NCBI RefSeq assembly: GCF_003334255.1 | Contig: NZ_QOWU01000080.1 | Origin: Escherichia coli | GTDB lineage: Bacteria > Pseudomonadota > Gammaproteobacteria > Enterobacterales > Enterobacteriaceae | Direction: 5' to 3' (one strand) | Length of the DNA: 14,006 nt | Part shown: positions 5,241-10,034 of the stretch, piece after piece | How the letters are laid out: each line of letters opens with the position of its first letter | Position numbering within the stretch: the stretch's first letter is position 1 | Translations under genes and position numbers: made by a program | Notes under the pieces: generated by a model | Seen by the model: the letters and a program-made list of their open reading frames with translations, nothing else | The model's database searches: none | What the model was told of the DNA's origin: nothing

Positions 5241-5336
5241 TCAATCGATGAACTGACGGATCAGTTCCAGAACTGCAATCAGCGCGTTTGCAACGGCGAC
5301 CACAGCCCTGAGAACGATGATTAACAGGTTAATCAT
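5241..5336 (-). CDS. Candidate type I toxin: 31-aa hydrophobic peptide, DinQ/TisB-like
   Basis: Not in the ORF track (below size cutoff). Translates to MINLLIIVLRAVVAVANALIAVLELIRQFID; GGAG sits 6 nt upstream of the ATG; resembles DinQ as recalled (shared IIVL and ALIA.LELIR blocks). Confidence 0.5.
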   Translation of the reverse strand: MINLLIIVLRAVVAVANALIAVLELIRQFID

Positions 5337-5413
5337 CCGTTTCTCCAGGTTGATACTGGAGGAAGTTGCCGTTGCTTGCTCATACATCGCCTGTCACAAC
5401 GGCTCTCTCACAT

Positions 5414-5453
5414 TGTTGGATGTAGAGTACCTTCCCCCTGCCAGAGCACTGAA
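5414..5453 (+). repeat. Copy 1 of a ~40-bp repeat, within the putative toxin leader
   Basis: TGTTGGATGTAGAGTACCTTCCCCCTGCCAGAGC... is roughly 85% identical to the copy at 5658-5697. Confidence 0.6.
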
Positions 5454-5623
5454 CACAGCACCACCTGTTTGTTCAGCCAGGGCTTTAATTCGTTCATACC
5501 CAGATAGCGCAGGGTTTAGAAGCAAGGGAGGCACACTGTACAGCGCCAACACAAAGATTATACAGATGCACGCATAAAATTCATTTAAAGAAATGGCCAT
5601 TGACAGACAATCTGAAGTCAAAC

Positions 5624-5650
5624 TAGACAACTGGTGTCTAGTGCCATAAT
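5624..5650 (+). promoter_or_regulatory. Putative sigma70 promoter for the small RNA
   Basis: TAGACA (5624-5629), 15-nt spacer, extended -10 TGcCATAAT (5642-5650); alternative -10 TAATAT at 5647-5652 with a 17-nt spacer. Confidence 0.3.
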
Positions 5651-5656
5651 ATTGTG

Positions 5657-5748
5657 GATGTTGGATGTAGAGTATCTTCCTCCAGTCAGAGCCACCAACT
5701 CAGGACTGGAAAACACGAAAAAGCCCGATTACCAGTCGGGTTTTTTTG
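5657..5748 (+). ncRNA. Candidate ~90-nt small RNA (AgrB-like antitoxin), divergent from the toxin gene
   Basis: Promoter-like elements upstream and a strong intrinsic terminator at the 3' end; body contains repeat copy 2, which is imperfectly complementary to the minus-strand toxin transcript at copy 1. Confidence 0.4.
5722..5748 (+). terminator. Rho-independent terminator
   Basis: Stem GCCCGA / TCGGGT with loop TTACCAG, followed by seven T; A-tract upstream, so possibly bidirectional. Confidence 0.6.
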
Positions 5749-6149
5749 TGCCTGTCGTTCGACTGTTCTTCCGTTTTTTCCCTTCATTTGGGGGATTTTC
5801 TTTCAGTTTTTTTGTTAAGTCCAATGCTGCCGGTCGCGTTGGCCAACAGATCAATGCCGTTATCGGCGTTTCCATTAATCCTTTTTTTCAGTAAGTTGCA
5901 GCACAAAAGATGATTAAAAAGCTATCAGTTTTTTTGATGGATACAGTAGCGGCGGTACGCTGCGTGAAATCTGAGGTTTTCGGGTAGGATTGGTCGCGAG
6001 AATTTACGAGAGAGCGACGGGCGGTTTCTGCACTGAGACAAGATACAACCGTTCTTTTTTTTCCCCTTCACGCCGTAGCTGAGCGATCTCGTCTCTGTTA
6101 CGCTGAAGTTCAATGATAGTCGTAATATTTAACTCTTTACCTCTTTCGT

Positions 6150-8160: not shown

Positions 8161-8169
8161 GAATACAAT

Positions 8170-8436
8170 TTATCGTCTCTTCGCCCACTCTTTTTCATCA
8201 TCGGTGAGTTGTTCTTTATGCAAATAATCACCAGGAACAGGGGGAGGGGTAACCAGTTTAGGACGTCCATTATCATCACGAACTGTCACCAGACCAACTA
8301 CTTCTCCATTTTCTTTAAGTGCCCATGCAGCCAGTTGATATAGTGTTGACTTTCCTGTTACACCAGAGACATTATCGTGACGAAAATACCAGTCTGTCGC
8401 AGGGATAATTTGTTTATAAGGTGATGATTCACTCAT
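8170..8436 (-). CDS. Hypothetical protein (88 aa)
   Basis: ATG at 8436 preceded by GAGG with an 8-nt spacer; the track's longer 133-aa version has no ribosome-binding site at its start. Product MSESSPYKQIIPATDWYFRHDNVSGVTGKSTLYQLAAWALKENGEVVGLVTVRDDNGRPKLV... Confidence 0.5.
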   Translation of the reverse strand: MSESSPYKQIIPATDWYFRHDNVSGVTGKSTLYQLAAWALKENGEVVGLVTVRDDNGRPKLVTPPPVPGDYLHKEQLTDDEKEWAKRR

Positions 8437-8688
8437 AGCTTTTTCCTCAAAAAAATCTCCGGTATAAAACCAGAGGCTTGTTATAGGGGTCAGTTTGGAG
8501 ATCGGAAAATTTTGTTCGTTAAGCACATTATTTAACCAATAGATATGCGTAACGGATTGATTTTGCGTCAACGGCTATCGCTTTTAAGTTATCGCCATTG
8601 CGGTATTGCATTTAGGTTATCCGATAGAGGTCAAATCCTCTGAAAATGCCGTATAGCACGGGAGTACACCCTACCGCAATAGCGCAAC

Positions 8689-8704
8689 CGTACAATATTG
8701 TACG
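8689..8704. promoter_or_regulatory. Perfect 16-bp palindrome CGTACAATATTGTACG
   Basis: Self-complementary; half-site resembles the TGTACA operator motifs near the phd promoter; lies in the divergent intergenic region. Confidence 0.3.
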
Positions 8705-8865
8705 TTTCCCAAACGCAGCCCATCAGGCGCGGAACTCATCGAGGCGCGGGAATAAAATCCCATTCAGATGCCGGATAGATTCAAGCAAGCCCACTTATCG
8801 TCAAAATCGGTGTTGCAAAAACGGGAGTGACCATAGATTCGTTTCCCAAACCGCCCCCTTTTATA

Positions 8866-8899
8866 TTGACCAGAAGTGTTGTACAGTTTAATTGTACAA
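8866..8899 (+). promoter_or_regulatory. phd-doc promoter with two palindromic TGTACA operator sites
   Basis: TTGACC at 8866-8871; two TTGTACA-containing palindromes centred about 13 bp apart (8879-8886 and 8892-8899), immediately upstream of the ribosome-binding site. Confidence 0.45.
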
Positions 8900-8916
8900 C
8901 TCAAAGAGGAAGCACT

Positions 8917-9141
8917 ATGTTTACATGTAACTATAGCCATGCTCGCGATAACCTGGCCTCGTTGCTCGAGCTGGCGGTTGATGAAAATCAGCCAGTTGAG
9001 ATTCAGCGCCGTAAAGGTGGCGCAGCTGTACTGGTTGATAAAGACGCTTTTGAACGATACCGTAAAGCGGCTCTTGATGCTGAGTTTGCTGAGATCATGC
9101 AAAGTCATGGGACGGCCTATACGGAGCTTTCTAAGCGATGA
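8917..9141 (+). CDS. phd: Phd-family antitoxin
   Basis: 74 aa, MFTCNYSHARDNLASLLELAVDENQPVEIQRRKGGAAVLVDKDAFERYRKAALDAEFAEIM..., closely resembling P1 Phd as recalled; GAGGA 6 nt upstream; stop overlaps the doc start (ATGA). Confidence 0.85.
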   Translation: MFTCNYSHARDNLASLLELAVDENQPVEIQRRKGGAAVLVDKDAFERYRKAALDAEFAEIMQSHGTAYTELSKR

Positions 9142-9524
9142 AATTCGTTAGTTCACAGGAAGTGATTGAGTTTCATGACCGCTTGATTTCGCGTGATGGT
9201 GGCGTGGCGGGTATGCCAGAACCCGGTCGCGCTGACGCGATCATTCATCGTGTTTTGAACATGTATCATTATGAAGGTGTGACAGATATTATGGATCTGG
9301 CTGCCGTGTATTTAGTTGCTATTGCTCGTGGTCACATTTTCAACGATGCAAATAAGCGAACAGCCTTGTTTGTTGCACAGGTTTTTTTAAAACGGAATGG
9401 TGTACATATTATTAGTTCACGTATTTCGTTTGATGAAATGCAAATTATCGCTTTGAATGCTGCAACAGGAGAATATAACTGGAAGATGGTTTCTGACCAT
9501 CTTAAAGCCATTATTCTAAATTAG
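9138..9524 (+). CDS. doc: Doc toxin (Fic/Doc family)
   Basis: 128 aa with the Doc-type motif HIFNDANKRTA and GMPEPGRADAII, resembling P1 Doc; translationally coupled to phd. Confidence 0.9.
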   Translation: MKFVSSQEVIEFHDRLISRDGGVAGMPEPGRADAIIHRVLNMYHYEGVTDIMDLAAVYLVAIARGHIFNDANKRTALFVAQVFLKRNGVHIISSRISFDEMQIIALNAATGEYNWKMVSDHLKAIILN

Positions 9525-9631
9525 ATATAGATATCCAATCAGCAGCATTTTACAATCTCCTGAGCAATGTAAAAATCATATATCTTTTTACTATATAATT
9601 TCTGGCGTATGTGCTCAATTCAGACCTGACA

Positions 9632-9693
9632 CCCTTCCGCTTCCTCGCCCACTCGCCCACTCGCTCACTACCGTTCGGTCGCTGCGGCGAGCG
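9632..9693. other. ColE1/pMB1-like plasmid backbone segment (region flanking ori; possibly a primosome assembly site)
   Basis: CCCTTCCGCTTCCTCGC...CACTCGCTCACT...CGTTCGGTCGCTGCGGCGAGCG resembles the pBR322/pUC segment TCTTCCGCTTCCTCGCTCACTGACTCGCTGCGCTCGGTCGTTCGGCTGCGGCGAGCG, recalled from memory. Confidence 0.4.
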
Positions 9694-9776
9694 TTTGTAA
9701 GTTTTTCAATACAGACGACGTTCTCCCTGGCTGATTAATATTGTGTAATAATACATATCGTTTTCAGGAATAATGG

Positions 9777-10034
9777 GGGGTTGAGGCCCAATCGTACGAG
9801 ATCGTACGCTAAGTTCATTTTTTGAGCAGAAGAGGGGGGGGGTAAAGAAAACGAGGGTTTTGTTTACTCTTCCCGTCAATGCCAGTAGCCATGCGGTTTC
9901 AGGGACTTTCAGTGTTAATAAACTCGGTAATCAAATCAACGTAAACCTGCCTAACAACGCCACGACTTTATTGACTTAAAATCATATAGTTAGCTTCTTA
10001 GCGTACGTTTCCGCTCCATTGGGCTTCAAACCCC
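9777..10034. mobile_element. 258-bp element bounded by gamma-delta (Tn1000)-like IRs; IS101-like miniature element, or a composite of IR remnants
   Basis: Left IR 9777-9813 GGGGTTGAGGCCCAATCGTACGAGATCGTACGCTAAG and right IR 9997-10034 (reverse complement GGGGTTTGAAGCCCAATGGAGCGGAAACGTACGCTAAG) are inverted with outer GGGG and inner TAAG; no ORF inside. Confidence 0.5.

Follow-up and report, generated by a model that had tools for sequence, protein, structure and literature searches.

The Phd-Doc complex of phage P1 binds two adjacent palindromic sites cooperatively (PMC13034048), and the YefM operator of Escherichia coli contains two palindromes with TGTACA cores, 12 bp apart, whose cooperative binding is disrupted when the spacing is changed (PMC4803016). 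Here we analyze a phd-doc operon carried by E. coli plasmids, using a stretch of 14,006 bp (contig NZ_QOWU01000080.1; this whole stretch is referred to as the window). An earlier note, made from the sequence alone, had described two TGTACA palindromes in the phd promoter and a perfect 16-bp palindrome farther upstream, which it took for a possible third Phd/Doc site or for the operator of a divergent 88-aa gene. The relatives of this distal palindrome are found elsewhere, in the ends of Tn3-family elements, in which the inner domain of the terminal repeat is the part that binds the transposase. Our comparison makes it very probable that the locus is an ordinary plasmid phd-doc operon with a two-box operator, lying beside an unrelated palindrome that belongs to a transposon-derived end. 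This reading is based on homology, boundaries and distribution, from which we infer DNA binding, repression, toxicity and the use of the repeat by a transposase.

The window stretch is present in identical form in pECOED (NC_011754.1; E. coli ED1a; IncK2/Z, conjugative) and in five other E. coli plasmids. The antitoxin gene phd (8917-9141, plus strand; 74 aa, with its ATG at 8917 taken from the open reading frame (ORF)) is preceded by a Shine-Dalgarno sequence, AAGAGG, read at about 8904-8909, and comes first in a bicistronic order, the start of the toxin gene doc (9138-9524, plus strand; 128 aa; Fic-fold kinase family) overlapping the phd stop codon by ATGA. In RefSeq, phd is annotated as an antitoxin of the Phd/YefM family and doc as a toxin of the death-on-curing family. 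Phd hits both PF02604 in Pfam (E 1.1e-9) and the NCBIfam model phd_fam, TIGR01552 (22.5 bits, cut-off 20.8), shares 42-43% identity with Phd of phage P1 and 49% with STM3559 of Salmonella, and has its closest PDB structures in P1 Phd (3hry, 3k33, 4zm0). Doc reaches 85.1 bits with TIGR01550 (DOC_P1; cut-off 38.65), matches the Pfam Fic family (PF02661, E 3.3e-11) and the P1 Doc structures in the PDB (3k33, E 3e-32), and is 51% identical to P1 Doc by BLASTP, in which alignment the catalytic motif HIFNDANKR (9333-9359, plus strand; residues 66-74) is the same in both proteins. By sequence, the locus therefore presents several defining features of a Phd/Doc type II toxin-antitoxin system, namely an N-terminal Phd/YefM domain for DNA binding and dimerization, an HxFx(D/N)(A/G)NKR motif and an overlapping bicistronic operon.

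In complete E. coli genomes we counted 46 full-length copies of this phd-doc allele, all of them plasmid-borne, and the allele was placed at 61 sites on plasmids and at none on a chromosome. The count of 46 derives from a restricted phd-doc query; wider queries returned thousands of plasmids, mostly through matches to a fragment of IS4321/IS5075 that lies upstream of the operon. Homology with most phd-doc plasmids starts at about 8859-8861, and the conserved cassette extends from about 8860 to 9729. These boundaries support the view that the window from 8860 to about 9729 constitutes a self-contained toxin-antitoxin cassette, and the similarities identify its allele as a plasmid relative of the P1 system, a member of a well-known family with nothing categorically new about it.

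The two TGTACA palindromes of the promoter were found as described, at 8880-8885 (box 1, context GTTGTACAGT) and 8893-8898 (box 2, context AATTGTACAAC), 13 bp apart from start to start. Both boxes are invariant in the five plasmid loci that we compared, and the spacer between them varies across these loci. TGTACA occurs eight times in the window against 3.6 expected copies, and the pairing of the two boxes goes beyond chance because the same pairing recurs in the homologues of P1 and Salmonella. In P1, the operator GTGTACAC-ATAAC-GAGTACAC lies downstream of the annotated -10 (TATAAT), its boxes separated by 5 nt and centered 13 bp apart, and the layout persists in 78 P1-like viral contigs, which show small variants such as GCGTACAC; our scan of viral contigs for relatives of Phd returned nearly exclusively P1-like copies and thus operator variants with little diversity. 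In the chromosomal phd-doc of Salmonella (STM3559/STM3558), three TGTACA boxes follow one another at exact 13-bp steps. The 13-bp layout agrees in three independent lineages. As far as sequence can tell, the present promoter has the two adjacent palindromes of an autoregulatory operator, with two GTAC cores at the P1 spacing, and the P1-type operator logic that had been proposed for it is well supported.

Counted from the phd ATG, the two GTAC cores begin at -36 and -23. A putative -35 hexamer of the phd-doc promoter, TTGACC (8866-8871, plus strand), can be read in the sequence and is conserved in four of the comparison loci (L003-L006), and two candidates for the -10 element, TTTAAT and TAATTG (8887-8894), lie in AT-rich DNA between the two operator boxes. 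On this tentative placement of -35 and -10, the boxes would straddle the -10 region.

The distal palindrome, CGTACAATATTGTACG (8689-8704), is indeed perfect over 16 bp and is the only perfect palindrome of at least 16 bp in the window. The distance of about 215 bp to phd that had been given for it holds as well, as its end lies 213 bp and its center about 220 bp from the phd ATG, and so does the common GTACAA half-site: the window contains nine TTGTAC/GTACAA hexamers, and five of these fall either within the palindrome or within the pair of proximal boxes. The cores of the palindrome, CGTACA and TGTACG, are centered 10 bp apart, and each matches TGTACA at five of six positions. In a promoter/terminator scan the palindrome was not called as a terminator, and an Rfam scan of the whole window returned nothing in the region of interest.

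The palindrome is accounted for by the DNA in which it is embedded. It corresponds to positions 18-33 of a degenerate 38-bp inverted repeat (IR-B, GGGCTGCGTTTGGGAAACGTACAATATTGTACGGTTGC; reverse complement of 8684-8721), which forms one end of a 236-bp element without an ORF (8486-8721, minus strand); at the other end lies a canonical 38-bp repeat of the form GGGG...CGTTAAG (IR-A, GGGGTCAGTTTGGAGATCGGAAAATTTTGTTCGTTAAG; 8486-8523). Counted from the two sequences, IR-A and IR-B have 22 of 38 positions in common. The element is non-coding, falls within 50-500 bp, is bounded by Tn3-family inverted repeats about 38 bp long and resembles MITESen1 over its whole length, and we therefore classify it as a MITESen1-like Tn3-derived miniature element (TIME). 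The element agrees with the ISfinder element MITESen1 (256 bp; sequence as given by Gomi and Yano 2026 in their Table S2, PMC13367494) at 197 of the 235 positions aligned (84%). At the place equivalent to the palindrome, MITESen1 reads ATAGAGAATTATTGTACGGTAAG and has a non-palindromic sequence, ATAGAGAATTATTGTACGG; only the right arm of the palindrome (TTGTACG) is ancestral. This arm corresponds to the GTACG that is conserved in many Tn3-family ends, e.g., that of IS101 (Table S2, PMC13367494), and its likeness to a Phd half-site is thus most likely coincidental.

The element is widely distributed as a unit of its own. It recurs in many plasmids as a discrete 236-bp sequence at about 93% identity; three copies are present in pECOED, and window 8486-8721 is 92% identical to its counterpart in comparison locus L010. 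In coordinates of the comparison loci, copies lie at 196-429 and 14432-14667 of L001 and at 317-512 plus 1872-1909 and 2501-2736 of L013. In PLSDB, more than 1,100 plasmids contain the palindrome-bearing repeat end; they are chiefly from Escherichia and Shigella and mostly lack phd-doc. The palindrome is perfect in the diverged copies of L010, L011, L012 and L013, two near-perfect versions being found in pECOED. An indication of mobility comes from L013 (pCTXM15_000533), in which two inverted copies surround a 117-aa ORF (WP_000005489.1) with IR-B at both outer ends, the whole composite being bordered by a perfect 5-bp direct repeat, TTTAA. As this duplication is a hallmark of Tn3-family transposition, IR-B together with its palindrome has apparently served as a transposon end.

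Several further observations concern the element itself. The 236-bp variant of MITESen1 is widespread in Escherichia and Shigella plasmids and was not found among the Table S2 sequences of the 2026 catalogue (PMC13367494). In L013, a different IS110-family element (513-1871; transposase WP_000156883.1) is located at the inner edge of the other repeat, representing an insertion into a MITESen1-like copy in F-type plasmids. Palindromes of 50 bp at 2975-3024 of L006 (perfect) and 2108-2157 of L011 consist of two outer repeat halves joined at the 16-bp palindrome. Since the palindrome is its own reverse complement, inverted copies of IR-B also have a 16-bp direct repeat in common, and deletion between such copies by slippage or recombination would take out the entire interior and leave scars of exactly the kind seen in L006 and L011; target-site duplications were sought around the 50-bp scars and none were found. 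Two other identities of the palindrome were considered and abandoned. A XerC/cer-like site, suggested by the shared CGTACAA, was dropped once the inverted repeat had been recognized, and a single-strand promoter (Frpo-like) repeat, suggested by the one orientation of the three pECOED copies, was rejected because both ends turned out to carry canonical Tn3-type repeats, because the unit is homologous to MITESen1 and because a 5-bp duplication was found.

Between the miniature element and the phd promoter lie the traces of a second mobile element. Window 8722-8839 (plus strand) is a remnant of IS4321/IS5075 (IS1111 family), comprising the last 118 bp, from the 3' non-coding region, which in this family specifies the seekRNA. 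An intact insertion sequence (IS) of this type has a DEDD transposase gene and both subterminal repeats; here, the 118-bp end alone is present, at 96.8% identity to the annotated right end of IS4321 in AB571791. The remnant is followed directly by the 19-bp tip of a second Tn3-family inverted repeat (8840-8858, minus strand; CGTTTCCCAAACCGCCCCC, reverse complement GGGGGCGGTTTGGGAAACG), which sits 7 bp upstream of the putative phd -35. The IS end adjoins this GGGG-tipped repeat 19 bp from the tip, exactly as IS4321 does in L002 and L009, identifying the repeat at 8840-8858 as the former target of the insertion and as the left-hand limit of the conserved phd-doc block. IS4321 and IS5075 favor Tn21-family inverted repeats (Partridge and Hall 2003, as cited in PMC11187229), a preference with which this position accords. 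At this locus, judging from the repeat, an IS4321-like element once targeted a repeat of the MITESen1 type rather than of the Tn21 type.

The linkage of the palindrome to phd-doc is correspondingly loose. Among the 46 E. coli plasmid records that carry the allele, the palindrome lies upstream of it in eight (five identical to the window, as well as CP027341, AP042496 and AP042678) and is missing in the other 38. All eight have the right junction 8721/8722 in common, and their left sides differ: in CP027341, an IS91 context cuts off the left arm of the palindrome, and in AP042496 only a 50-bp perfect palindrome is left. In L004 and L005, the DNA upstream of the same phd allele is unrelated and contains no distal GTAC sites. 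In CP129349 (L014), a copy of the element is found about 205 bp downstream of doc instead, which points to a separate insertion event at the opposite edge of the conserved cassette. We therefore regard the linkage in eight plasmids as a mosaic juxtaposition of an unrelated phd-doc operon and miniature element, a view that carries the same high confidence as the reading to which it belongs.

We considered whether the palindrome might be a chance feature with no role even inside the miniature element, which seems unlikely. MITESen1 is non-palindromic at this place and is nevertheless considered mobile, and the right arm alone is conserved, both of which speak for chance. However, many copies that have diverged still have the palindrome in perfect form, it is located in the inner repeat domain, i.e., the transposase-binding part of Tn3-family ends, and the 50-bp scars centered on it suggest that it takes part in rearrangements. 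If the palindrome has a role, it is likely to be as part of the transposase-binding inner end domain of the element.

A much less probable explanation would make the distal palindrome an evolved third site for Phd/Doc, acting through looping or as an auxiliary operator so as to tune repression of phd-doc. The GTACAA/TTGTAC half-site common to the palindrome and box 2, the five-of-six match of its arms to TGTACA and the Salmonella locus, which shows that a third box is possible, favor this explanation. Yet the third box of Salmonella is in phase at 13 bp and not 190 bp away, and the distal cores are 10 bp apart rather than 13, in a type of operator in which altered spacing disrupts cooperative binding by YefM (PMC4803016). 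Moreover, the palindrome belongs to a repeat end of more than a thousand plasmids that mostly lack phd-doc, it accompanies the allele in only eight of 46 plasmid records, it lies outside the conserved block that starts at about 8860, and two mobile-element junctions, one formed by the IS remnant and one by the repeat tip, intervene between it and the phd promoter. Taken together, the 10-bp spacing, the mobile-element junctions and the distribution render an evolved third operator very unlikely, and this part of the earlier note is not supported.

Some observations nonetheless weigh against the separation of the palindrome from the operon and against parts of our account of the locus. Each arm of the palindrome includes the exact ATTGTAC half-site of box 2, operators of the P1 lineage tolerate CGTACA (as in the variant GCGTACAC), and Phd might therefore plausibly bind the palindrome weakly and incidentally. 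A 5-bp target duplication was sought at the window copy of the element and not found (flanks ttata and atcag), nor was one found at the single copies in L013 and L014, which makes transposition of the window copy into its site by its own means uncertain. Finally, a strict consensus scan of the window found no sigma-70 promoter for phd, which leaves the -10 assignment weak.

By extension, Phd/YefM-type antitoxins might recognize the palindrome, fortuitously or adaptively, and hence bind Tn3-family ends; we give this idea very little credence. If true, antitoxin levels would be coupled to transposition or rearrangement of the element, or eight plasmids would possess a distal auxiliary operator.

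The remaining explanation, in which the palindrome controls the divergent 88-aa gene as its operator or as part of its promoter, owes its appeal to the position of the palindrome upstream of this opposite-strand ORF, about 250 bp from its ATG, and is scarcely credible in view of the separate mosaic units formed by the block 8161-8456 and the 236-bp element, which differ in distribution, of the absence of the palindrome in pSE34, where the gene follows topB-hha-hns, of the unrelated genes that adjoin other copies of the element and of the hairpin at 8457-8475 (minus strand) that intervenes.

The 88-aa ORF itself (8173-8436, minus strand) is present as had been reported. It is situated in the separate block 8161-8456, whose homology ends at 8456, beyond which a terminator-like hairpin (8457-8475, minus strand) lies between the miniature element and the gene; plasmids of about 30-50 kb carry the block by itself. 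In the IncX1 plasmid pSE34, the gene is the last in a same-strand series with topB, hha and a gene of the H-NS family. The proposal that the palindrome is the native operator of this gene is thus at odds with the block structure and can, by all indications of the comparison, be set aside. Searches of Pfam and NCBIfam with the 88-aa/133-aa ORF gave no family match. RefSeq calls a 118-aa version (window 8170-8526, minus strand; L001 9071-9427) 'methionyl-tRNA formyltransferase', a name with no backing from Pfam or NCBIfam, and in IncX1 plasmids the 87-88-aa form is annotated as a hypothetical protein after topB-hha-hns.

We thus return to the two-box operon beside a transposon-derived end, for which a working model can be drawn largely by analogy with P1. 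One Phd dimer would bind each TGTACA palindrome, occupying boxes on either side of the -10 region. With Phd in excess, Doc would bridge two Phd dimers and thereby strengthen repression, while an excess of Doc would break the repressing complex (conditional cooperativity). Upon plasmid loss, the labile Phd would be degraded and Doc set free; as a Fic-fold kinase with an intact HIFNDANKR motif, Doc would then phosphorylate EF-Tu and block translation, so that plasmid-free segregants would be killed or arrested. The palindrome very probably lies outside this circuit; it is the inner half of one 38-bp terminal repeat of the 236-bp element. The element adjoins the remnant of an IS4321/IS5075 copy that had inserted into another Tn3-family repeat.

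On the other side of the operon, window 9630-9700, 3' of doc (CTTCCGCTTCCTCGCCCACTCGC...GGTCGCTGCGGCGAGCG), presumably resembles the region beside ColE1/pMB1-type replication origins and belongs to the conserved phd-doc block in every plasmid compared. Farther downstream, a 38-bp inverted repeat of Tn3-family type, GGGGGGTTGAGGCCCAATCGTACGAGATCGTACGCTAAG (9775-9813), points rightward and is, we assume, similar to the repeats of gamma-delta/Tn1000 and IS101. The window and L004 part at this repeat, downstream of doc, and different Tn3-family ends accordingly flank the phd-doc cassette on both sides.

Elsewhere in the window, an Rfam match to AgrB (RF02891) was found at 5661-5748 (plus strand; 68.8 bits, with the gathering score at 40). 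AgrB is an antisense RNA of the chromosomal dinQ-agrAB locus. The match here is plasmid-borne and lies beside small ORFs at 5317-5577 and 5634-5894.

The palindrome offers a caution, in that a perfect palindrome containing the half-site of a nearby operator looked regulatory, and comparison of plasmids traced it to one end of a miniature mobile element. The additions to the recent catalogue of such elements in Enterobacteriaceae plasmids are modest, comprising the widespread 236-bp MITESen1 variant, the IS4321-type targeting and the 50-bp palindromic scars. The plasmid phd-doc has a cleaner pair of TGTACA boxes, which may make it useful for comparative work on conditional cooperativity, though it holds no surprises.

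Among known systems, P1 phd-doc is similar to the present operon in gene order, overlapping stop and start codons, the Phd/YefM fold, the HIFNDANKR motif and two GTAC-core palindromes 13 bp apart. It differs in the boxes themselves (GTGTACAC and GAGTACAC in P1, TGTACA twice here), in their placement (following the -10, at -28 and -15 from the ATG, in P1; straddling the putative -10, at -36 and -23, here) and in its host replicon, a phage-plasmid as opposed to conjugative E. coli plasmids. The phd-doc of Salmonella enterica (STM3559/STM3558) shares 49% identity in Phd and the TGTACA boxes at a 13-bp period; unlike the present operon, it is chromosomal and has three in-phase boxes rather than two. 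E. coli yefM-yoeB, with its L and S palindromes, has an antitoxin of the same fold family and TGTACA cores overlapping the promoter (PMC4803016), whereas its spacing is 12 bp and its toxin belongs to the RelE/ParE superfamily instead of being a Doc protein. MITESen1, at 84% identity, likewise has Tn3-family repeats at both ends, is mainly plasmid-borne and forms composites with 5-bp direct repeats. Compared with it, the element here is 20 bp shorter owing to an internal deletion beside one repeat; this repeat is degenerate at both ends (tip GGGCTGCG..., inner end ...GGTTGC) and carries the perfect 16-bp palindrome that MITESen1 lacks. Lastly, the remnant next to the element is 96.8% identical to the right end of IS4321/IS5075 and lies at the characteristic target position, 19 bp from a GGGG tip, but comprises only the last 118 bp, without a transposase, and abuts a target repeat of the MITESen1 type, not of the Tn21 type.

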